From: an uncultured delta proteobacterium
GTDB lineage: Bacteria; Desulfobacterota; Desulfobacteria; Desulfobacterales; SG8-13
Reading direction: 5' to 3'
DNA: 64,000 bases
NCBI GenBank assembly: GCA_963825595.1
Contig: CAWGUE010000026.1
Location: forward strand, 26,651-90,650
Shown here: piece after piece, positions 20,374 to 38,603 of the stretch
Position numbering within the stretch: the first letter of the stretch is position 1
Layout: each line of letters opens with the position of its first letter
Made by a program: the position numbers and the translations under genes
Notes under the pieces: generated by a model
Seen by the model: the letters and a program-made list of their open reading frames with translations, nothing else
Told to the model about the DNA's origin: nothing
Databases searched by the model: none

Positions 20374-22275
20374 TTGGTCGATAGATCCTTAAAGATCAGG
20401 TCACATACGATACCCGTTCGGATTCTCCTGCCGGTGGTGCTGACCGTCGCCCTGTTCGTGGGAACCATTTTTCTGTTCATCCTGCCGATCCTGGAAAATC
20501 GAATGATGACCGACCGGCGCGAGATGGTCCGCGAACTGACCGAAACCGCCTGGAGCGTCCTCGAATCGTTCAGGGAAAAGGAAATCGGGGGGCGATTGTC
20601 GGGGAAGCAAGCCCGCCTTCAAGCCGTCGAGGCTTTGCGGGCGCTGCGGTACGGGCCTGAAAAAAAGGACTATTTCTGGATCAACGATATGCATCCGCAT
20701 TTGGTCATGCATCCGTATCGCCCCGATTTGGAAGGCAAGGACATCTCAGGCTTTACCGACCCCAGCGGCAAAAAGCTCTTTGTCGAATTCGTCAAGGCGG
20801 TCGAGACCGCGGGGGCCGGTTATGTCGATTATCAATGGCAGTGGAAGGACGACCCGCTGCGAATCGTCCCCAAGATATCCTATGTCAAAGGCTTCGATCC
20901 CTGGGGCTGGATCGTCGGCACCGGCATATATGTCGAAGATGTCCGCACCGAAATCGCCGCCATTACCCGCCGGCTGACAGTTGTCTGCCTGGCGATTCTG
21001 CTGTTGATCGTCGGCCTTTCCGGCTACACCGTCTGGCAAAGCGCCGCTGGCGAGCGTCGACGGCGCCTGGCCGTCACGGCTTTGCGTAAGAGCGAGGAAA
21101 AATACAGGCTGCTGGCCGAAACCGCCCGGGAATTCATCCTCGCATTCGATCCGGTCGGCCGAATTTCTTATGCCAATCGCGCCTGGCTCGCGGCCAGCGG
21201 ATTCGATTCGGCAGCGATTCGTGATATGAAGATGGCGGATATTCTGCCGGTCGAGGAACGGGCCGCATTCGAAGAACGCCTGGAAAAACTAAAGTCCGAA
21301 GGCACGAGCGAGCCCCTGTTTGCGACGCATTTCCTGCTTGATAGCGGGTCCCATATTCCGGTCGAGGCAACCCTGGCGGCATTGCAGGAGGGCTCAGAAA
21401 TCGATCGCATTTTCATCACGGCCCGCGATGTCACCGAGAAAAAAAAGGCTGAACATCAGGCCCGAAGGCACCGGGAACAGCTATTTCAGGCCGACAAGAT
21501 GGCAACCCTGGGAACATTGGTCTCCGGTGTCGCCCACGAAATCAACAATCCGGTCACCTTCGTCATGCTCAATGCGCCGGTTCTCAAGCAGGCCTGGCAG
21601 GCCGTGCTTCCCATACTGGATGAACACCTGCAAAACCATGGCGATTTCAAAGTCGGCCGTATGGACTACTCCCGCTTGCGCGAAAGGCTACCGCTGCTGG
21701 TGGACAACATCATCGAGGGCGCCGAACGGGTCAAGGCCATTGTCGGTGACCTCAAGGATTTCGCCCGTCAGGGTCCGGGTCAGATGACCGATGCCGTCGA
21801 CATCAACCGCATTGCCGCCAAGGCTGTCAGTCTCGTCGGAAACATCATCAAAAAGAGCACCCATCATTTCGAAACCCATTACGCCGCGGATATCCCGACG
21901 GTGGCCGGCAACCCTCGAAAAATCGAACAGGTGGTCATCAATCTGCTTGTGAACGCCTGCCAGGCCTTACCCGATCCCAGTCGGACCATCCGGCTGTCCA
22001 CCGCCTACGATCTCGACACCCGCAGCGTTACGATTGAGGTTCGCGATCAGGGCATCGGGATGCCAGCCGAAGTGCTCCAGCGTATCCGTGACCCGTTTTT
22101 CACCACCAAACGTGAGTCCGGCGGCACCGGACTCGGACTGGCCATCGTTGATCGAATTGTCGACGACCACAAGGGGCAGCTGACATTCAGTTCCGTTGTG
22201 GACCATGGAACGACGGTCAGGATCAGCCTGCCGCTTACCCCTTCATCCGCAAACGAGCGGGAGACGACATCATGA
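20374..22275 (+). CDS. Cache/PAS sensor histidine kinase
   Basis: YFWIND...MHP Cache domain between TM helices; PAS; AHEINNP H-box; N, G1, F and G2 boxes; start codon uncertain. Confidence 0.93.
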   Translation: MVDRSLKIRSHTIPVRILLPVVLTVALFVGTIFLFILPILENRMMTDRREMVRELTETAWSVLESFREKEIGGRLSGKQARLQAVEALRALRYGPEKKDYFWINDMHPHLVMHPYRPDLEGKDISGFTDPSGKKLFVEFVKAVETAGAGYVDYQWQWKDDPLRIVPKISYVKGFDPWGWIVGTGIYVEDVRTEIAAITRRLTVVCLAILLLIVGLSGYTVWQSAAGERRRRLAVTALRKSEEKYRLLAETAREFILAFDPVGRISYANRAWLAASGFDSAAIRDMKMADILPVEERAAFEERLEKLKSEGTSEPLFATHFLLDSGSHIPVEATLAALQEGSEIDRIFITARDVTEKKKAEHQARRHREQLFQADKMATLGTLVSGVAHEINNPVTFVMLNAPVLKQAWQAVLPILDEHLQNHGDFKVGRMDYSRLRERLPLLVDNIIEGAERVKAIVGDLKDFARQGPGQMTDAVDINRIAAKAVSLVGNIIKKSTHHFETHYAADIPTVAGNPRKIEQVVINLLVNACQALPDPSRTIRLSTAYDLDTRSVTIEVRDQGIGMPAEVLQRIRDPFFTTKRESGGTGLGLAIVDRIVDDHKGQLTFSSVVDHGTTVRISLPLTPSSANERETTS

Positions 22276-23703
22276 GCTCTGCGCGACCTTCCCAACCGAT
22301 CCTCATCGTGGATGATGAGGCCGCCATAATACTGGCCATCGACACCGCTCTTCAGATGGCCGGATTCAACAACACCCTGACCTGCCAGGACAGCCGTCGG
22401 GTCATGGATCTATTGGCCGAACACCCGGTCGAGGTTCTCCTGCTCGACCTCACGATGCCCCATATCCAGGGCGGACAATTGTTGGATCAGGTCAGCCGGG
22501 AATTTCCTGAAGTTCCGGTGATTATCGTCACCGGGGCGGTGGACATTGAAACGGCGGTGGTGTGCATGAAATCGGGCGCTTTCGACTATGTCGTCAAACC
22601 CGTGGAAGTCGACCGGCTGGTATCGGCGGTCAACCGGGCGGTATCGTTCCGGGAACTCAAGCGTGAAAACTTCGCTTTGAAGCAGCACATTCTCAATGAC
22701 ACGCTGGAAAGCCCGGAGGCGTTCACCAGCATCATCACAAACAATAAAAAAATGCTGTCCATTTTCCAGTATATCGAATCGATCGCGCGGACGGCGCAGC
22801 CGGTGCTGATACGGGGTGAAACCGGTGTGGGCAAGGAACTCATCGCCCGAACCCTGCATACCCTCAGCGGGTTGCCGGGTGCGTTCGTAGCAATCAATGT
22901 CGCCGGGCTCGATGACAATGTATTTTCCGACACCCTGTTCGGCCATATCCGGGGCGCATTTACCGGTGCAGAGCGTGATCGCCGGGGGTTGATCGAACAG
23001 GCTGCCGGTGGCACCCTGTTTCTGGATGAAATCGGTGACCTGAGCCCGGCATCGCAAGTAAAACTGCTCCGCCTGCTGCAGGAAAGCGAGTACTTTCCCC
23101 TTGGGCAGGATGTGGCCAAGCTATCGGATGCACGCATCGTGGCCTCCTCCAATGTCGATCTCTGGGAGCGCCAGAAAGCCGGACTGTTCCGTAAAGATTT
23201 GAATTACCGGCTGCGGACCCACCGGATCTACATCCCGCCGCTGCGGGACCGGAAGGACGATCTCCCGCTGTTGGTCGACCATTTTCTGGAAAAAACCGCC
23301 GCCGAGCTGAATAAAAAGAAGCCGGCCGTGCCCGAGGAACTCTTTGCACTGCTTCGGGCACACTCCTTTCCGGGAAATGTCCGCGAACTGCAAACTCTTC
23401 TTTTCGACGCCGTCAGCCAGCACAAGGGAGGCATACTCTCTTTGAGCGTATTCAAGGCTCACATCAAGCTGCACCGGTCAAGGGAAAATCCCGCCCCTGA
23501 AGCCCTAAACGACGCTCCTCAGGAGCGATCTGGAGCGGATCGTTTTCCCTGAAAACCTGCCGACCATCAAGCAGGCTGCGCGCCAGCTGGTGTCCGAGGC
23601 GCTCAAGCGCGCCGGGGGTAACCAGTCCATTGCCGCCGGAATGTTGGGAATTACGCAGCAGGCTTTGAGCAAGCGGATCAAAAAAATGAAAGCGGATACG
23701 TAG
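22272..23703 (+). CDS. Sigma54-dependent response regulator (NtrC family); Fis-type HTH in the +1 frame after about 23520-23550
   Basis: Receiver, GETGVGKE, GAFTGA, LDEIG, FPGNVREL; +1 frame FPENLPTIKQ...GGNQSIAAGMLGITQQAL to TAG 23703. Confidence 0.9.
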
Positions 23704-30596: not shown

Positions 30597-30737
30597 CTAG
30601 TGTTCCGGATCCTCGCGATCGAACTTTGGCTCGGTGTCATCGCAACCGTCATCGAAATCACTCCAGGGGATTGATTTCTTGACCTCCTTTTCGATCAAAT
30701 CTTCCCAATTGTATCCGGGTCTGTATTCTTCGTGCAT
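30597..30737 (-). CDS. Small acidic hypothetical protein (46 aa)
   Basis: ATG preceded by AAAGAAAGG; MHEEYRPGYNWEDLIEKEV... Confidence 0.4.
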   Translation of the reverse strand: MHEEYRPGYNWEDLIEKEVKKSIPWSDFDDGCDDTEPKFDREDPEH

Positions 30738-30870: not shown

Positions 30871-30906
30871 AAAAGTAAAACTCCCCGGGTGACATACCGC
30901 AGGGAG
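30871..30906 (-). terminator. Intrinsic terminator of candidate sRNA 1
   Basis: Minus strand CTCCCTGCGG..CCCGGGGAG followed by TTTTACTTTT. Confidence 0.7.
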
Positions 30907-31330
30907 TTAAAAGGAGGATGATATAAAGGATGTTTCAGATACCGCTTCAGATTTACATATACGTTTTAAGTTATATTACTCGGATTATCCGTCTTTAACC
31001 AGTACTGCTTTTCGATGATACAAAAGGCTACCCTTACCTTTTTATTTAATCCTTTGTGTTGAGTTTGATAAGTAATGTTAACTTGCCAACGAGTTTTTTT
31101 CGGTTTAGCGTTTCAGATTGAAGGTAATTATCACCACCGGCTCTGAAACATCCTTTATACGCGTGGTTGAGGGCTCATCCGATTAACCCCCGGCTTTGCC
31201 GTATATCCTTGTGTGTCGGCATGCCCGCTCGGTTCGTCGGCAGCAGCGCAAATGTCGAAAGCGGAAAAGGAAGATAAGCGCGATAGGGTCTTGGATAACG
31301 TTCAATACCATCCGTGGCCCGGCATACCGA
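30871..31330 (-). ncRNA. Candidate sigma54-dependent sRNA 1 (about 450 nt)
   Basis: Lies between a sigma54-like promoter and terminator; 18-bp inverted repeat 30922-30939/31142-31159; several ANGGA motifs; anti-SD tract before the terminator. Confidence 0.55.
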
Positions 31331-31340
31331 AAACGGATCA

Positions 31341-31356
31341 TACAAATTTTATGCCA
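31341..31356 (-). promoter_or_regulatory. Sigma54-type promoter
   Basis: TGGCATAAAATTTGTA (GG-N10-GT; one mismatch at -12). Confidence 0.65.
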
Positions 31357-31430
31357 CAGACGTAATTTACTGTATTTCTAAATTTTTCGAACGGTTATAT
31401 AGCTCCGCTTACGCTCACCGACCACCTTAT

Positions 31431-31467
31431 TGACAAAATACAGTCAAATTCTTGACAAAATTTGTCA
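31431..31467. promoter_or_regulatory. Paired TGAC-N7/8-GTCA boxes (putative enhancer)
   Basis: TGACAAAATACAGTCA 31431 and TGACAAAATTTGTCA 31453, 22 bp apart. Confidence 0.65.
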
Positions 31468-31509
31468 GCCGCCAATCTACGCCCACAGATTTGTGGTCAT
31501 CGGGCCGAT

Positions 31510-33300
31510 TCAGACCCACCGCAGGGCTTCTGAAAGGCACGTTTCCCGCAGCAAGCGCTTTTTGCCCAGGCGCAGGCAAACGGTCCGGCCGGAGGCGGTC
31601 AAACGGCGAAGATCCGTCATCAGCACGCGCAACCGGTCATAGGCCGGTAGGTCGAGGCAGCGTTGCCTGGTGAAGACACCACGATGATAATGCGGTGGCA
31701 CAGGCGGCGCATCGCAGGAGTCCACCTCGAACCGGTCGACGACACGCCCCTCGCTGATAACGAGTCCGATGATGGTCTCCCGCCGCGAAGTCCAAACCAG
31801 AGACGATTCGCTCAACAACATCAACCACCGCGCCCGGCGCAGCAACCAGGCGCATTGACCCAGTACAGATTCAATCCGGCTGATCACATCTTCCGCTGTC
31901 CATTGGACATCGACAGGACCGGTTTCCGTCTCTACCGCACTGCCGATTGTCGGCTCTTGCTCGATTTCGGCCGCCGCTGCGGCCAGCCGTCTTTTCCTGT
32001 CACCGATGGCGAGCAATGATCGCCAGAAAGGTTTCGATTCAACAGCCGATGCATACTGCTCCCTGAAGATTCGTAGACCCTCTTGAAGACATGCGTCGCC
32101 GGGGCAGAAGCACTCCGGCAGGTCAAGCAGCACGGTTGCTTCAGGGGTGGCTGCTGCAGGCCGGGCTCCGATGGGGCTCGTCATGAATCCACCGATGGCA
32201 TGCAACGCCGCAAAAGGACCCCGGTGCAGCACGGGGCCGAACCGATGCCGGCGATCGGGTGTATGCGAAAAGTGGCTGAAGTGAGGAGACATGAACCACG
32301 TGCGGCGATTGTCCGCCTGCAGGGCGACGTTATAGGGCGGGCAGAGTCGCTTGATCTCCTCGGATTCCAGGAGAGCGGCCTCAAGCGCCGATGCAGTGGG
32401 CGTTATTTTCAAGCCTGCAGCCTGGGTAAGCATTTCAAGGGATTTCTCCGAACTGCAGCCGGTTTTACGAAAATGACTGTTTACCCTCTGGCGAAGACGC
32501 GTCGCCTTACCGATGTAGAGAGGATCACCGTTGGAGCGCACGAAACGATACACACCAGGACCGTCCGGCAGGTCACGCCGCATGGCCTCGGCCATGGGAT
32601 ACCGGCGCACAGTGCCGGCCGGCACCGGTGTTTTCTCGAGCCAGCATTTCAGTTCCGAAAGAGTGTGAATCTTATCGGAGCGTCCGAGAAGAGCGACCAG
32701 CTCACGCCAGATGACGGCCGTGGCCGTAACGTGGGCGGCGCAGCGCCGGCTGGGGGTAACCGTGTGCCCAAAGTATCCGGCCAGGGCCCGCAAGCCTTTG
32801 CGGGGAAGTTCGGGCAGCAGGCGCCTCGCAATTTCATGGCTGCAGATGATGTCGAACGGAAATATCGATGCGGCTCCCTGCGCCTCGTGAAGATGCCGTA
32901 AAAAAGGACCTTCAAAGCGCGCAAAGTGAATGACTGTCGGGCAGCATTGCGATTGGTTAAGTCCGGATATCGACCGGGCCGTTTCGCTCAGGCGGTGCCA
33001 CACGGTATTGGTCGACCGCCCATCGACTAAATCGGTTTGCTTAATACCCGTCAGACGCGCCACGGGTGACGGAATCGTCTCGGTTGTCGGCAATCGAACC
33101 AGGCAGCTGACAACCGGCAAACGGCCCGGTGCGGCCACGTGTGCGGCCGATGTCCGCATCCATCCCACTTCAATTAGACTGGCGCTTTCCGGACGGCTAC
33201 CGGTGGTTTGGCAATCGAAGATCAGCACCTCGAGTGTCTCGAGTGGTGAATCGATCCCCATGCCTTCAGGGGGAGTGTTTGTCATTGGATGGTGCGACAC
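31510..33300 (-). CDS. DEDDh-like exonuclease domain (degenerate) fused to UvrC/Cho-like GIY-YIG endonuclease
   Basis: IFDCQTTG...LIEVGW; GVYRF..LYIGKA..LRQRV.SHF...ALLE...P.YN. Confidence 0.82.
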   Translation of the reverse strand: MSHHPMTNTPPEGMGIDSPLETLEVLIFDCQTTGSRPESASLIEVGWMRTSAAHVAAPGRLPVVSCLVRLPTTETIPSPVARLTGIKQTDLVDGRSTNTVWHRLSETARSISGLNQSQCCPTVIHFARFEGPFLRHLHEAQGAASIFPFDIICSHEIARRLLPELPRKGLRALAGYFGHTVTPSRRCAAHVTATAVIWRELVALLGRSDKIHTLSELKCWLEKTPVPAGTVRRYPMAEAMRRDLPDGPGVYRFVRSNGDPLYIGKATRLRQRVNSHFRKTGCSSEKSLEMLTQAAGLKITPTASALEAALLESEEIKRLCPPYNVALQADNRRTWFMSPHFSHFSHTPDRRHRFGPVLHRGPFAALHAIGGFMTSPIGARPAAATPEATVLLDLPECFCPGDACLQEGLRIFREQYASAVESKPFWRSLLAIGDRKRRLAAAAAEIEQEPTIGSAVETETGPVDVQWTAEDVISRIESVLGQCAWLLRRARWLMLLSESSLVWTSRRETIIGLVISEGRVVDRFEVDSCDAPPVPPHYHRGVFTRQRCLDLPAYDRLRVLMTDLRRLTASGRTVCLRLGKKRLLRETCLSEALRWV

Positions 33301-33400
33301 CTGATAAAAGGGTAAAAAGGGGGTCGAAAAAGACCAGACAGGCCTGCAGCATTCCTGAATGGACTGATTGCTGGTGGTGGGGGTTGAGACAGCCCGCGAC

Positions 33401-34309
33401 TCAGTCGACTTTCAACTTCTTGGCGTAAGAGGCCGCTTCAAGACCTGCCACACAGCCTTCTCCGACGGCTTTGGCCATCTGCCACGGCGGCCCGCAGATG
33501 TCTCCGGCAGCAAAGACGCCCGGTACGCTGGTTTTCTGTTTTTTGTCGGTCTGGATATACTTGGCGTCATCGTCCAGGCGGATTCCCAATTCGGTGGCCA
33601 GTTCCATGACACCCTTGGCTCCGAGTTCGATAAAAACACCGCTGACAGGAATAAGCGTGCCGTCTTTCAACACGATGCCGGTCACTTCTTTGTCTCCGTT
33701 TATTTTCGCGACGGTCGCACCCTGGCGGACGATCACGGCGCTATGTTCGATTTCCTTCCTCAAAGAATCCACTACTTGTAACCGGTTGCAGATCAGATGA
33801 ATCTTACTGCCGTATCCCGTCAGCGTCAGGGCGCCGCCGGCAGCAGCACTTTCATCCCCGATAACCGCCACTTCCTGGTTGCGGAAAAAATTCGCATCAC
33901 ACTCGACGCAGTAACTGACCCCTTTGCCGAGAAGTTCCTTTTCCCCCGGGACACCCAGTTTGTTGCGGGTTGAACCGGTAGCGATAATCAGGCTTTTACA
34001 GCGGATTTTTTGTCGGCTTTCGGTCGTCAGGCTGAACAATGGGCCGTCCTGGGCAACCTTCATAATATCCTCGTCGACGATTTCTGCACCGAAGCGGATC
34101 GCCTGCTCACGTCCAATTCTCAGCATATCCTCCCCGGCCACATTGAAGAGACAGCAGAAGTTCTCGACATGGGCGTGAAACAGACTACTTTTGACCTGCT
34201 TACCGTACATGACGACCGTGGCTTTACGCCGGGCGGCATGAATGGCGGCCTGAAGTCCGGCCGGTCCTGTACCGAGGATAACCACATCAATGATCTCGTT
34301 GTCCTGCAT
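33401..34309 (-). CDS. Thioredoxin reductase-like flavoprotein
   Basis: GTGPAG, IATG, GKGVSYCVECD and TSVPGVFAAGD. Confidence 0.88.
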   Translation of the reverse strand: MQDNEIIDVVILGTGPAGLQAAIHAARRKATVVMYGKQVKSSLFHAHVENFCCLFNVAGEDMLRIGREQAIRFGAEIVDEDIMKVAQDGPLFSLTTESRQKIRCKSLIIATGSTRNKLGVPGEKELLGKGVSYCVECDANFFRNQEVAVIGDESAAAGGALTLTGYGSKIHLICNRLQVVDSLRKEIEHSAVIVRQGATVAKINGDKEVTGIVLKDGTLIPVSGVFIELGAKGVMELATELGIRLDDDAKYIQTDKKQKTSVPGVFAAGDICGPPWQMAKAVGEGCVAGLEAASYAKKLKVD

Positions 34310-34451
34310 TCGTCATCTCCCTTGTTCGACCATCATCTTGATACGGTCCGACAGAACTGTCAAGCGCTGGAGCCTGGGTAACGGATTGCGATCGGTAAAC
34401 GGAGCCCATCCACCGACTCCGACCTGCATCAATAGGCGCTTTGTCAATCAG

Positions 34452-34509
34452 TGCCCATCCACATTTCGTTAAAGGCATTACAGAGTGTCCAATTCATGAA
34501 TGCACATTT
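34452..34509 (+). repeat. Truncated left end of the 37405/48100/61707 element
   Basis: TGCCCATCCAC...TCGTTAAAGGCATTACAGAGTGTCC matches 61707-61760. Confidence 0.75.
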
Positions 34510-34710
34510 CACTCTCGACTCTTCCAGGCTCTTGAATTAGGCGTTTTCGGCATTACACTATTGTCTGTAGTTGTCAACCCGAGGCCGACCCGTTTAATCG
34601 ACACATCGATTGTGGGTCGGAACAGACCTCATCCGAGCATGCTGACGCCGGAAAGCATCGACACCGGTCGCAGCGTGTCAATATGGAAGTTCGAAAGGAG
34701 ATGAAGCCGC

Positions 34711-35013
34711 ATGGCAAATGATAAATTCAGAGTTACGCCGGATGTTTGTACCTACCTCAGCGAAGATGAGCACACCCTGAACATTGAAGTATCCGTACCG
34801 GGTGTCAACAAAGACGATATCCGCCTGCGAATGCTCGACGACAGTTTCAATCTGACGGCCCCAGGAAAGGATGTCGAATACGTCACTGCTTCAGCCTTCT
34901 GCTGCCCGGTAAAGGCCAATGAAGCCCAGGCAAAATACGAAAACGGCTGCCTTAAAATATCGGTGCCGTTTAAAAATCCGTTTGAAAACGCCGTGCAAGT
35001 TCTTATCAGTTGA
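34711..35013 (+). CDS. Small heat-shock protein (Hsp20 domain)
   Basis: VPGVNKDDI and AKYENGCLKI..P; AAGGAG RBS. Confidence 0.88.
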   Translation: MANDKFRVTPDVCTYLSEDEHTLNIEVSVPGVNKDDIRLRMLDDSFNLTAPGKDVEYVTASAFCCPVKANEAQAKYENGCLKISVPFKNPFENAVQVLIS

Positions 35014-35440
35014 TCGCAATCTTTCGCCGGGAATTTACCGATCACCACCCCAAACGCATCGCGTCACGGGGGCACGTCGCAATATAAATACGAAAAGCGG
35101 GGCCGTTAAAGGCCCTGCTTTCTGCTTCAGTCCCTAATCGAACCGCCGCGCGACCGTTGGATGAGTGCTCCCAACCTAAGCATTTTACCAATAGGTGGCT
35201 TTCGAGTCCATGGCCTCTCGTGGTGAAGTTGGCGTTCATCTATCGCGAGCCCAAATTACGCCGGTTTCCGAATCCACACCAAAATTCAGTTCCTAAAAAG
35301 CCGGCTTTTGACCCGAGGGTGAAAATTTCGGGTTAAATGTCGTTCCGATACAAGGCGCCCGCAGGGAGGGATTCGGAGTCGTCGTTTTTAAACGCACAAC
35401 CGGCCGCTAACCATCGCGCAGACAAAGGGTCAATCGCCGG

Positions 35441-36025
35441 TCAGCTACTTTCACCTTTGAGGCCAAGAGTGTCGGCGACCTCCCGCATACCCATGATGGT
35501 GTCGGTGATGAGCTCGCTTACGTCGACACCCAACATCTGACCCCCTTTTTCAATTATTCCTCGATCAACGCCGGCGGCAAACCGCTTGTCTTTCCACTTT
35601 TTTTTGACCGACTTGGCCTTCAAGTCCATCAGGCTCCGTGATGGCCGCACGAGAGCGGTCGTGACCACCAGTCCCGTCAACTCATCGATGGCGTAAAGGA
35701 CCTTTTCCATTTCCGTTTGGGGTTCCACATCCGTGCAGATTCCCCACCCATGGCTCACCACCGCGCGGATATACTCTTCGGGCCAATTCTGGTCCCGAAG
35801 GATTTCTTCGGTCTTCCGGCAGTGCTGTTGGGGAAACATTTCGTAATCCAAATCATGAATGAGGCCGATTATGCCCCATTTTTCTTCATCCTCGCCGCGT
35901 TTACGCGCCATGTAACGCATGACGCTTTCAACGGCAAGGGCGTGTTTGATCAGGCTTTCATTTCGATTGTATTCCTTCAGCAGTTGGAAGGCTTTTTCAC
36001 GTGTCGGTTCTCTTGATTCATTCAT
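35441..36025 (-). CDS. HD-domain phosphohydrolase
   Basis: KHALAVE, GLIHDLDYE, SH, DELTG and KKKWKDKRFAAGV. Confidence 0.9.
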   Translation of the reverse strand: MNESREPTREKAFQLLKEYNRNESLIKHALAVESVMRYMARKRGEDEEKWGIIGLIHDLDYEMFPQQHCRKTEEILRDQNWPEEYIRAVVSHGWGICTDVEPQTEMEKVLYAIDELTGLVVTTALVRPSRSLMDLKAKSVKKKWKDKRFAAGVDRGIIEKGGQMLGVDVSELITDTIMGMREVADTLGLKGESS

Positions 36026-36116
36026 ACGTCAACCCCTTTGATCTCCAAAAATTTCATGATTTTTTATCACGCGAACGCGTTTTGAAGATAAAATGCACCG
36101 CAGCCGACCCCCCCGC

Positions 36117-36668
36117 TCAAGGCAGAAACAACTGCAATTCCCTCAAACCCATGGTTCCGGCCGACGCGATGATTCTCTGTGAGTATCGGCCGCACTCGAT
36201 GATTCTCGCTGTTTTTTTTTCACAAACCGCCGCGGAAAAACGGCCGCTTAGAAAGAGGATCCTCGGGAACAGAAGCGCGTTGATGAACGGCAGGCCGCTG
36301 TCCCGGCAGAATCCGCTGCCGCGGCCATCGTCGATAATGATAAAATCGGCCCGTCCTTCTTTAAAACAAGCGATGGTATCCCGCTCTCCCGGGTCAAGGA
36401 GCTGCAAACGCATAGCGCGCGGACTGCGCGTCGCGGTTCGCCCGTCGCAAGACATGATAGTGATGGCCCGCCGGCGCCCCATATCTCTAAAGAATTCCGA
36501 TCCGGGGTATCCGCTGCGGGTCACTTCCGAGAGGACCGAAGCCGTCATCAGGAGGCGGTAGGTCTGAGCCAGCCGCCCGAACAACCCTGCCTTGAAGAGA
36601 ATAATGGCTGATGAGGCATCGACGATCGCTCGCTTACGATTGTTGTCGTTCTTCTGAAAAATGTCCAT
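36117..36668 (-). CDS. PIN-domain-like protein (DUF3368-like)
   Basis: IVDASS, VLSEV, LDPGE and IIDD acidic pattern of PIN folds. Confidence 0.7.
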   Translation of the reverse strand: MDIFQKNDNNRKRAIVDASSAIILFKAGLFGRLAQTYRLLMTASVLSEVTRSGYPGSEFFRDMGRRRAITIMSCDGRTATRSPRAMRLQLLDPGERDTIACFKEGRADFIIIDDGRGSGFCRDSGLPFINALLFPRILFLSGRFSAAVCEKKTARIIECGRYSQRIIASAGTMGLRELQLFLP

Positions 36669-36714
36669 GCAAAGATGGCGATAGGGTAACCACCGCGGCA
36701 TTTTTTATCAAGTT

Positions 36715-36863
36715 GAAAAATATTCATGAAATATGCGGGTGAGAGACCCAGAGTGGTGACAGAGCGTGATCATCGATCGAGCCGTACCGGAAGAGTCGAA
36801 TCAGGGGCGTTCTATCCCGCACAATTTACGATGCGGGAAAATATTCATGCTGTATGCGGGATA
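36715..36863. repeat. Short direct/inverted repeats AAAATATTCATGnnnTATGCGGG
   Basis: Copies at 36715-36739 and 36837-36860; TATCCCGCA 36813 is inverted to TGCGGGATA 36855. Confidence 0.6.
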
Positions 36864-36992
36864 AAATATGAGCCCCTGAAGTTCTGAGAACTCCAGGGGC
36901 TTTTAAAGGAGGAGTCACCCCGAGGTTCACCACGCCTCGGAGTTTGTCTGATGAAGTTGCCGACACCGGGTTGGTTGGCGTGGCAGCTTGAT
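36862..36992 (-). ncRNA. Candidate sigma54-dependent sRNA 2 (about 130 nt)
   Basis: Hairpin CTCCGAGG..CCTCGGGG, then ACTCCTCCTTTAAAA anti-SD tract, then terminator-like stem AGCCCCTGGAGTT..AACTTCAGGGGCT; no ORF. Confidence 0.65.
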
Positions 36993-37001
36993 TTCTGGTA
37001 T

Positions 37002-37017
37002 TTCAATTTTCATGCCA
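37002..37017 (-). promoter_or_regulatory. Sigma54-type promoter
   Basis: TGGCATGAAAATTGAA (GG-N10-GA; one mismatch at -12). Confidence 0.65.
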
Positions 37018-37040
37018 AACCGACCTTAAAATTGCATTTT

Positions 37041-37053
37041 TAATTCGTTGATA
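37041..37053 (-). promoter_or_regulatory. IHF binding site
   Basis: TATCAACGAATTA matches WATCAANNNNTTR, with adjacent A-tract, between enhancer and promoter. Confidence 0.65.
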
Positions 37054-37096
37054 TGATTGGTTTTTTATTTAAGGCGGGCAAAGACCGCCGCAAACT

Positions 37097-37133
37097 TGCC
37101 AAAACGCGTCAGAATACCTGACCAAAATTGTCA
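37097..37133. promoter_or_regulatory. Paired TG(A/C)C-N7-GTCA boxes (putative enhancer)
   Basis: TGCCAAAACGCGTCA 37097 and TGACCAAAATTGTCA 37119, 22 bp apart. Confidence 0.65.
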
Positions 37134-37404
37134 CCTGTAGATCTGAAACGGCCGTTGAATCCGACAAATGGGATCCGTCGTCCCTGAACAGCAAAACCGA
37201 TTTCTGATGGCCGTAAGATCATCCGGCCGACCGGATTGTTGGCGTCAAAGAACCGGACCGCCCTGCCGGACCCTCAAGGTATCGCCCCCGTATCTAAGCC
37301 GTTTTTTCCTTTTATTTCACCCGTGATTATGTAAAAACAGGGGTGACGATCCCCTTAACGACCGATCGTCGCCCCTAAAAACCTGCGCCAGGAATGCTAA
37401 GTAG

Positions 37405-37598
37405 TGCCCATCCACGAAAAGTGGATGGCACCATTAAGTGTCCAATTCATAAATGAGATTTTTTTTCGCTGGGCAAGACCGCATCCCGCCTCGGCGGGAT
37501 TTGCGGCGAGGCGTACTTTATGTACGCCGCAGCCGGAAACCTGCGGAGAATCCCGCCTGGCGGGACCCAGCGGAAAAAAGGCCATTTATGGGTGGACA
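37405..37598 (+). mobile_element. MITE-like element, copy 1
   Basis: Ends TGCCCATCCAC/ATGGGTGGACA; flanks CTAAGTAG/CTAAGTAA; similar to 48100 and 61707. Confidence 0.85.
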
Positions 37599-37625
37599 CT
37601 AAGTAAGGAGGAGACCGTCGATCAG

Positions 37626-38603
37626 ATGGGCAAGGCAAGCGCGATTGTTATGGCCGGCTACAATAACAAATGGGTCGTTCGGAAATATGCCAAAATCGTC
37701 GCCGAACACTACGGTGAGACATTCATCGAAACCGGATACAAGCCGTTACGGGAATTCGAAGTCATCGAAAACGATCGACCGGTTAAAAAACCGCTGATTC
37801 AATTCACTCTGGAGCAGCTTTTGCAGTGCGATCGTATCGGGGACATTACCATCGTCGGTCATCAAATGTTGCTGGAGCAGCGTCTCAGAGATTTTCTCAA
37901 CCAGTCCGGCAGGCCATATCGAATTATCAACCAGAACACCCACATTCCGGCCGATGTCATCGAGGCCTTTCATATTCGGCCCCGCAAGGTTAGTCACAAC
38001 TCCATCGCCGGAAATATGATCAAGGGTTATGCGGCCAGCGCCGCCAGCGAACAGCAGCGACACGCTCTGTTCGTGGCATCGGACTCGCCGTTGACCGCCA
38101 GCAGTTTTATCGATTACTTTCTGGATCTCTCCGAAAAATTCGCCCAGGACTATACCATTATTCTCCCGGCAGTATTGATCGAAGGCGTCACGGACAATTT
38201 TGGGCGCTATCCCATGAAACTCATCAACGACTCTGAAATTCAACTGTCTGACAAAACCGACGCCCATGGTCGGCAGGGTTTTCGCCTCTCTTCTCTGATG
38301 TATGCCAATCCGTACGGATTCGACATCAACACGGCCAATACCGCTTACAATCTACGCAAGTGCCTGAATCCCAAGGTGCAGCTAAAATTGTTCAGGATCA
38401 CGCGGGATCTGGGGTACAAAAATGTCTACTCCAAGCATTTTATCCAAAAGGATCTAAGTCTGAAAGAAGTCGAGAATATAACCTCGGCCTTTTTCGACGG
38501 GCGCCTGAAGATAATTCCGGTACAGGAGGTGGCCACGAGCTACGATTATGACGGTACGGACGACGAATACAGGCGGCTGGCTGAAATCCTCAGAAAAGTT
38601 TGA
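37626..38603 (+). CDS. Hypothetical protein, probable GT-A/NTP-transferase-like fold
   Basis: AIVMAG, KPLIQFTLE.L, VASDSPL and C-terminal DYD; start moved downstream of the repeat (AAGGAGG RBS). Confidence 0.65.
   Translation: MGKASAIVMAGYNNKWVVRKYAKIVAEHYGETFIETGYKPLREFEVIENDRPVKKPLIQFTLEQLLQCDRIGDITIVGHQMLLEQRLRDFLNQSGRPYRIINQNTHIPADVIEAFHIRPRKVSHNSIAGNMIKGYAASAASEQQRHALFVASDSPLTASSFIDYFLDLSEKFAQDYTIILPAVLIEGVTDNFGRYPMKLINDSEIQLSDKTDAHGRQGFRLSSLMYANPYGFDINTANTAYNLRKCLNPKVQLKLFRITRDLGYKNVYSKHFIQKDLSLKEVENITSAFFDGRLKIIPVQEVATSYDYDGTDDEYRRLAEILRKV

Follow-up and report, generated by a model that had tools for sequence, protein, structure and literature searches.

The stretch of DNA considered here raises the question whether two non-coding loci that look alike in their control regions also encode one kind of RNA. 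The loci, designated A (~460 nt) and B (~130 nt), lie on the minus strand of a 64,000-nt stretch (the window; from contig CAWGUE010000026.1) of the genome of an uncultured member of the Desulfobacterales (G000; 5.3 Mb, 95% complete). Both contain tandem TGAC-N7-GTCA boxes, a sigma-54 promoter, the 9-mer TCCTCCTTT, which is complementary to the Shine-Dalgarno (SD) sequence, and a terminator. A preliminary description had reported these ordered elements, all of which we recovered at their minus-strand places, and had proposed one small RNA (sRNA) family whose anti-SD tract blocks ribosome-binding sites. The reading that we prefer, with a probability of about 0.55, differs in part: A and B would be two different non-coding RNA genes, co-induced by one sigma-54 activator with the boxes as its predicted sites, B repressing via TCCTCCTTT and A acting via a helix-closed loop and not via its tail. 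Probably, the two are regulated together, differ in structure and belong to a hitherto undescribed modular set of sigma-54 RNAs. This reading builds on what is seen in the sequence: the boxes, promoter, spacing and terminators are conserved, the same switch recurs at a third locus, A contains a long-range helix and B a stable fold, and Hfq was found in 0/41 genomes.

The common control region

The control regions are composed of the following parts (G002 is a relative genome):

31453..31467, minus strand: distal enhancer box of A, a TGAC-N7-GTCA palindrome (box pair in 16/17 homologues)
31431..31446, minus strand: proximal enhancer box of A, N8 variant (box pair in 16/17 homologues)
31341..31356, minus strand: sigma-54 -24/-12 promoter of A, 74 nt from the proximal box, predicted start ~31330 (17/17 homologues)
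37119..37133, minus strand: distal enhancer box of B, N7 (kept in G002)
37097..37111, minus strand: proximal enhancer box of B, N7, ending in GGCA (kept in G002)
37041..37053, minus strand: exact match in B to the IHF consensus WATCARN4TTR as quoted in PMC7962754, between boxes and promoter
37002..37017, minus strand: sigma-54 -24/-12 promoter of B, predicted start ~36991 (kept in G002)

The geometry of boxes, spacer and promoter is the textbook looping arrangement of sigma-54 activation: palindromic activator sites were found ~100 bp upstream and in helical phase, and G000 encodes RpoN as well as 51 matches to the sigma-54 activator domain. Both promoters are present where they had been placed, with -12 elements (GG-N10-GT in A, GG-N10-GA in B) that deviate from the consensus GC. 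The boxes had been described as lying exactly 22 bp apart, which holds in A for the period measured end to end and not for that measured start to start, which is 21 bp. The genome-wide search for a box pair plus promoter that had been suggested at the outset recovered a third locus, outside the window (G000:C13:142998), in which both are arranged as in A and B and the TCCTCCTTT tract is lacking. When the genome was ranked with a weight matrix, C13, A and B occupied the first three places (61.9, 46.8 and 44.8, respectively, versus a best score of 14.3 in the reversed genome), a result that is partly circular, since the 19 sites from relatives on which the matrix was trained include homologues of these three loci.

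Within the order, the tandem-box pattern was recovered in 22/251 genomes and a reversed control pattern in 0/251. Among the 22 box-pair loci that were examined, a promoter in range was found for 19, of which 10 lead into non-coding units without a long open reading frame (ORF). The box-to-promoter distances, determined for 54 distinct spacers with close kin included, cluster at 73-75 nt (29/54) and 84-87 nt (14/54), i.e. one helical turn apart, and IHF-like sites occur between boxes and promoter in 31 of the 54 (12.8 in shuffles; same consensus). The regulation of A and B by a common sigma-54 switch, as put forward in the preliminary description, is well supported on the basis of conservation.

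The boxes were also observed elsewhere. A box pair precedes genes that we take to be type IV pilin-like in two genomes (L298, L300) and presumably ccdA-like in four (L301, L302, L304, L306). In three genomes (G000:C15:147190-147600; L294, L307) a ~65-aa cysteine-bearing protein is encoded behind a box pair and sigma-54 promoter, and is likely a protein-coding member of the box regulon. Because the boxes occur before coding genes, some of them beside different activators, more than one activator may read them.

To find the activator, the 45 intact activators of G000 were compared with 150 activator loci from five genomes, and three of the 45 were profiled order-wide. Among the matches listed, three activators of G000 are matched by reciprocal orthologues in four genomes that bear the boxes, and by none in one genome that lacks them. 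The best candidate by co-occurrence, and a candidate only, is a two-component response regulator (G000:C30:83805-85193) that is encoded behind a hybrid sensor kinase. Its C-terminus was recovered in 70/251 genomes of the order, in 17/22 with a strict box pair and in 18/18 in which the boxes precede an A RNA or a C RNA (the latter introduced below); for a rival activator (C15) the corresponding figures are 109/251, 17/22 and 12/18. Outside the family to which the window belongs, the counts are 11/11 for the C30 regulator versus 5/11 for the rival. The helix-turn-helix of the C30 regulator is most like that of the activator encoded just before a box-bearing pilin-like gene, and the protein passes no NCBIfam cut-off among the 25 families listed. 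An NtrX-like candidate is near-universal (232/251) and thus uninformative. PilR was rejected for G000 (best identity to the pilin-adjacent activator 44%; a pilin-cluster promoter without such boxes), and so was the activator encoded in the window (22272-23552, plus strand), which is accompanied by a kinase gene of its own and for which five genomes yielded no orthologue exceeding 46%. The latter sigma-54 activator apparently ends without the usual C-terminal DNA-binding helix.

Predicted transcribed parts of the two loci

The predicted transcribed regions and their surroundings are divided as follows:

31160..31330, minus strand: 5' lead domain of A, ~170 nt, dispensable (12-89 nt in 4/17 homologues)
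31143..31159, minus strand: 5' arm of a 17-bp long-range helix in A
30939..31142, minus strand: insert of A, 204 nt, unstructured, A-rich, with CTGAA repeats; AAC-rich in most relatives
31077..31090, minus strand: small GTTG-N-GTYAAC hairpin module of A, also present in the tails of C-motif RNAs
30922..30938, minus strand: 3' arm of the long-range helix, predicted to be fully paired
30909..30921, minus strand: linker of A holding the anti-SD tract (TCCTCCTTT at 30918-30910; tract in 1/17 homologues; mean unpaired probability 0.52)
30871..30908, minus strand: intrinsic terminator-like hairpin of A (30908-30879) followed by a U-run to 30871 (17/17 homologues; 2 pairs with double changes)
30597..30737, minus strand: 46-aa acidic small ORF downstream of A (behind A in 14/17 homologues, one genus)
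36918..36987, minus strand: two hairpins of B, 36987-36956 and 36942-36918 (fold also in G002)
36905..36913, minus strand: single-stranded anti-SD tract TCCTCCTTT of B (identical in G002; mean unpaired probability 0.83)
36862..36901, minus strand: terminator-like hairpin of B (36901-36871) and U-rich tail

In accordance with the earlier observation that long ORFs are missing, the longest sense ORF in A has 42 codons and no ribosome-binding site, and B has no sense ORF that passes the filter. ORFs that start from an ATG in either arm of the A helix are not conserved among the homologues, and a coding role was rejected. The expectation that the RNAs belong to no known family was borne out: with the whole window scanned, none of the Rfam 15 covariance models matched A or B at the gathering score, and among 27 related loci and re-cut stretches a flanking tRNA alone passed it. 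An identity as 6S RNA was rejected for both loci (no RF00013 match there, and the 6S RNA of G000 lies at G000:C12). A type I toxin-antitoxin system was also rejected: the antisense ORFs vary in length and sequence among 12 homologues, and no conserved small hydrophobic ORF was found among them. That A and B are non-coding units which end in terminators is supported. RNA-run data were available as assembled contigs from four runs; run X1 covered 30/30 bins at a similar low, DNA-like depth, and runs X3 and X4 yielded one short contig each over the insert of A, plus contigs elsewhere.

Homologues of A were recovered from 16/19 genomes of its family, as three weak matches from 21 genomes of other families, and from 11 metagenome stretches. 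Several searches together suggest that A is confined to one family, though they could miss distant forms, as the query of the order-wide search consisted largely of the 3' end and the small ORF. The long-range helix is nearly invariant: over 18 aligned copies 98% of the helix cells are paired, 12 pairs are invariant, and the other 5 show changes on one side, which in every case yield G-U on the transcribed (sigma-54) strand; one of these pairs is also mismatched in 4 copies. This bias (with equal odds for both directions, a chance of about 1 in 32) suggests RNA rather than DNA pairing. As to covariation, which had been proposed as a check, two pairs in the terminator of A show double changes, and no pair in the helix is doubly compensated. 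The insert ranges from 144 to 244 nt among the homologues and is no more stably folded than shuffles. An AAC enrichment was seen in 5/9 representative inserts, and CTGAA is present in 8/9 and its complement in 0/9, so that no inverted insert was seen. A box-driven non-coding unit of ~280 nt from another family (L291; G378:C46) contains six CTGAA repeats (0.2 expected) and resembles the insert of A.

For B, one homologue was found in 40 relatives (1/40; G002), with tract, boxes and fold kept. The fold is unusually stable (z = -4.9; 0/200 shuffles as stable), and the anti-SD stretch is exposed in 2/2 copies (G000, G002). Conservation of the anti-SD tract thus stands for B, which keeps it exposed in its sole homologue, but not for A, which has it in 1/17 homologues and maintains the helix instead. 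The notion of one family defined by the tract could not be upheld, as the bodies of A and B are unalignable beyond the tract and the foot of the terminator (p = 0.14). A derivation of B from the C13 tail was considered and rejected (the alignment gave p < 0.002 for G000 and p = 0.99 for G002).

As for the neighbours, A is flanked by genes for a 596-aa exonuclease/GIY-YIG protein and a penicillin-binding protein (PBP), and B by two genes without Pfam families. The 46-aa ORF has 17 database relatives without Pfam families, one homologue being labelled Desulfobacterales, and an NCBIfam search gave no match. Close to B lies a 165-nt repeat (37437-37601) that forms one long hairpin with terminal inverted repeats and is MITE- or REP-like; it has 105 BLAST matches in the genome (74 of them 60 nt or longer) and overlaps the over-long called start of ORF 37404-38603.

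A wider RNA set and its possible action

Taken alone, the 9-mer TCCTCCTTT is a weak signal, with 93 occurrences in the genome, and among the 45 listed most are reverse complements of ordinary ribosome-binding sites. For the combination of tract and hairpin, which had been suggested for a genome-wide search, B ranks 1st and A 9th of the 93 by energy of the downstream hairpin. The third locus then provided a broader view. Its core (G000:C13:143199-143295; L047, L062) is a ~100-nt covarying RNA motif, the C motif, which is often multicopy or tandem. It was found in 41/201 genomes of the order by BLAST, in 4/150 genomes sampled across the phylum and, with an exact pattern search, in at least 119 GTDB stretches, the bearers of which are labelled mostly Desulfobacterales, Desulfobacteraceae and Desulfatiglandales. 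Among 105 distinct copies, 52 have a sigma-54 promoter and 24 a box within 400 nt. The structure was set by hand from anchored counts and then counted in an alignment of 74 of 80 de-duplicated copies (RNAalifold on the raw alignment gave only 8 pairs): double changes were found for 9 pairs and 51 cells, versus 4.7 and 12.5 in shuffles, which beats all but 1/500 shuffles, and the signal falls away in slid controls. The internal loops are near-invariant; a fixed 5' pattern was used to collect many of the copies, so that conservation is inflated there. No Rfam family matched the motif. Its core is present in three copies in G000 and, according to model R1, absent from the window and from the homologue loci of A and B. 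The C motif is probably the most valuable lead of the analysis.

What connects these RNAs to A and B lies outside the core. Among 85 distinct C copies a terminator was seen in 48, in 19 without and in 29 with a longer tail in front of it. In keeping with the anti-SD tract of the preliminary description, anti-SD tails recur across the RNAs of the order: the final 30 nt in 30 C RNAs with long tails pair better with the SD consensus than do 261 control terminator regions (p = 2e-5), and better than their own shuffles. These tails contain [CT]TTCAT in 11/30 cases (1.4 shuffled) and can be read as CAT-N-anti-SD in 10/30 (3.5 expected). Of the box-driven units without a C core, three (L303, L305, L309) have a C/U-rich tail and terminator hairpin much like B, and another (L290) ends in TCCTCCTTT. 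By these counts the anti-SD tail is a real recurring module of the RNAs across the order, but an optional one. The GTTG/GTYAAC hairpin module is present in 10/85 C tails, with none on the reverse strand and none upstream. A profile made from these 10 tails ranks the insert of A 1st in the 5.3-Mb genome, on the right strand, with E = 2.6, a likeness that was first noticed by eye; the match of B to the small-hairpin profile is not significant (E = 0.82). The accessory modules shared with the C set are, accordingly, the small hairpin, pyrimidine tail and enhancer in A, and tail and enhancer only in B.

Several variants were encountered among the C-type units. Two units of G000 (G000:C2:85266-85415 and G000:C7:37830-38080; L248, L249, L474) have a shortened C core, preceded by an AAACC-hairpin-AAAGGTTA module that is present in 11/85 C copies. 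At C7 the unit comes with a sigma-54 promoter and a terminator of its own, and no tandem box pair was picked up there. A sequence that we take to be boxA-like lies at most 60 nt upstream of the core in 11/85 copies, versus 1 on the reverse strand (e.g. L062, L064, L066, L069, L075, L049), and may recruit Nus antitermination factors. In L074, L079 and L170 the core is found directly upstream of a ribosome-binding site and gene, without a terminator, and hence the C motif may also act in 5' leaders. L303, L305 and L309 constitute a separate sRNA-like family of ~140-165 nt from one genus, with a long GGCAATC/GATTGCC hairpin, a C/U-rich tail and a terminator, and without an Rfam match.

Target prediction returned no specific target above the shuffled background. 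A presumably ybaB/ebfC-like gene pairs well with A, but ranks 4th-5th, within the shuffled range, and was rejected. For the tails of C RNAs, no single perfectly matched target was present among the matches listed in five genomes. The lack of a specific target fits a broad, weakly selective repressor as well as a role without pairing. CsrA and ProQ, like Hfq, were not found in G000 (95% complete). Two single-RRM proteins encoded in G000 are possible RNA partners; in Bacteroides an RRM protein is listed together with paralogous sRNAs (PMC11697453), which provides a lead and not evidence.

Put together, the preferred mechanism would run as follows. The C30 response regulator would loop to the promoter with the help of IHF and co-induce A, B and C. 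Across the order the RNAs would be built from interchangeable modules, namely the ~100-nt C core, the GTTG/GTYAAC hairpin, single strands rich in AAC or CTGAA, and a pyrimidine tail that matches the complement of the SD and, in many cases, of the start codon as well. B, as a nearly tail-only form, would pair its exposed TCCTCCTTT with ribosome-binding sites and damp many mRNAs with a strong SD. A would present its long unstructured loop to an RNA-binding protein or, alternatively, a double-strand nuclease would cut the helix and free a 3' piece, with the anti-SD tail being an optional addition in this lineage.

The original proposal, in which A and B are siblings within one sRNA family and both act through the 3' TCCTCCTTT on ribosome-binding sites, now seems unlikely to us. 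The tract indeed holds the same position before the terminator in A and B, anti-SD tails are enriched across the wider set, four further A homologues carry CCACCTC (SD pairing of -9.7 kcal/mol), and the invariant 3' arm of A contains CATCCTTT. That arm, however, is predicted to be fully paired, 16 of the 17 A homologues lack the tract, pairing is weak (above -7 kcal/mol) in 10 of the 15 A linkers listed first and in both from the second genus, and homology between A and B ends with the tract. We are equally reserved about a reading in which the whole set would serve as decoys that sequester a protein, as CsrB and CrcZ do, though a different one, and in which the C/U-rich tails would be binding motifs or by-products and not seeds. 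It would account for the several and tandem copies per genome, the near-invariant internal loops of the C motif, the AAC and CTGAA repeats in unstructured inserts and the missing specific mRNA target, and the two single-RRM proteins could be the partners. Yet neither Hfq nor CsrA was found that could be titrated, B has no repeats and keeps an exposed tract, and the tails match SD and start codon beyond composition.

Two further explanations concern A only. It could be a long 5' leader, attenuator- or riboswitch-like, for read-through into the 46-aa ORF and the PBP gene, which is next on the same strand, and the small ORF does lie behind the terminator in 14/17 homologues. This we consider improbable: in three homologues from other genera the ORF is missing while RNA and terminator persist, the conserved helix does not overlap the terminator, and B and C13 have the switch without such a gene. 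Least probable of all is that the 17-bp inverted repeat is a DNA element (an invertible segment or small mobile element) and no RNA helix. A near-invariant inverted repeat around a variable insert, without any double-compensated pair, is what such an element might look like, but it is single-copy, its place between promoter and terminator is fixed in 17/17, its substitutions favour G-U on one strand, and CTGAA keeps one orientation in the inserts.

Other observations weigh against the preferred reading of two different, co-induced RNAs. The RNA-run contigs do not establish a transcript: they reveal neither strand, ends nor level. The boxes also precede pilin-like and other coding genes, some of which adjoin different activators, other activators adjoin similar boxes in some genomes, the order-wide profiles comprise 3/45 activators, and the kin compared are not independent. 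With respect to B, there is a single homologue, and its linker pairs below -15 kcal/mol with 299/4834 called genes, which is similar to a generic 16S-tail control (207). For A, the pairing of the tail does not improve on that obtained after its 5' part was shuffled (best -28.9 versus a mean of -27.1 kcal/mol), the helix is without any double-compensated pair in the 18 copies, and the AAC excess is not significant in the inserts of G000 and G002, which leaves the sponge-like signal at its weakest in the genome under study. In two genomes the RNA locus itself is the only perfect complement among the matches listed, and 19/48 terminated C RNAs have no tail.

A more far-reaching picture, which we offer tentatively and with considerable doubt, is that the Desulfobacterales run an Hfq-free and CsrA-free post-transcriptional network of modular sigma-54 RNAs, in which the core would dock a protein or ligand, loops would serve as decoys, and the tail would be complementary to the SD plus AUG-AAA, so that one two-component signal would throttle translation broadly and not gene by gene. 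Such a network would bear on the question how base-pairing RNAs work and find their targets in bacteria without Hfq, ProQ and CsrA. What the analysis offers for testing is an enhancer motif with a candidate activator, the two RNA genes of the window, and a structured RNA motif that is widespread and not in Rfam. Records labelled Desulfosarcina and Desulfatibacillum, genera with cultured members, contain the C motif, which makes a bench test possible. According to the part of PMC11887813 that was available, much of the sulfate reduction in marine sediments is due to the Desulfobacterales and related groups, and small-RNA regulation in these bacteria was not found described in the literature searched.

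Comparison with known systems

Sigma-54-driven regulatory RNAs are known as such, examples being CrcZ, Qrr and Pxr; CrcZ is a long A-rich decoy, and CrcZ and Qrr need Hfq. Like CrcZ, A might be a long A-rich decoy; it differs from both CrcZ and Qrr in that Hfq was found in 0/41 genomes and that the loci have no Rfam match. The Hfq- or CsrA-dependent class (Qrr, CrcZ, CsrB) was rejected on account of the Hfq and CsrA searches. No description of the present RNAs was found in the literature searched, most subscription papers being outside its reach, nor a match to the terms looked up in the main text of a 2026 preprint on non-coding families. The accessible part of PMC11109978 reports a Desulfobacteraceae motif (gcsH), and the C motif may be listed in its supplement.

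Among sulfate reducers, four sigma-54 non-coding RNAs are listed for Desulfovibrio vulgaris Hildenborough, in the regulons of DVU0653, DVU0679, DVU1419 and DVU2359 (PMC4641369, PMC3333781; both in part). By description they are alike in having a sigma-54 promoter, a dedicated activator and a non-coding product, and unlike in that the activator sites shown for these regulons are other palindromes (PMC4641369). The nearest published site seen there is that of the nitrogen regulator DVU1949, TGAC-N6-GTCA, which is one base shorter than TGAC-N7-GTCA.

The cuckoo RNAs of Alphaproteobacteria (RSs0680/CcsR, ar14) are, in the portion of PMC4615179 seen, likewise modular and multicopy and have an anti-SD motif, but present CCUCCUCCC in 2-4 hairpin loops, have an RpoH-type promoter and are bound by Hfq. 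A and B have a single tract in the linker before the terminator, outside loops, a sigma-54 promoter and no Hfq found, and were rejected as cuckoo RNAs for lack of 2-4 hairpins with CCUCCUCCC loops. NrsZ of Pseudomonas, as far as PMC4253122 was available, is similar in its dependence on RpoN and an activator, its long processed primary transcript and its variable number of modules; unlike A and B, which have no Rfam match, it has repeated ACAGGCAG loops, is NtrC-driven and activates rhlA.

Closest by description is FlmE (CJnc230) of Campylobacter jejuni, which, in the part of PMC11187230 consulted, is RpoN-dependent and, like B, has two stem-loops and a single-stranded anti-SD stretch; it represses at the ribosome-binding site and is processed by RNase III in a long stem. 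It is unlike A and B in being cut from the flgE mRNA, where they would have their own enhancer-driven genes, and in having flagellar targets. By analogy, FlmE may serve as the closest working model for B and for a possible processing of A, and A and B, with the C-motif RNAs, probably represent an undescribed modular set within the known class of sigma-54 regulatory RNAs.

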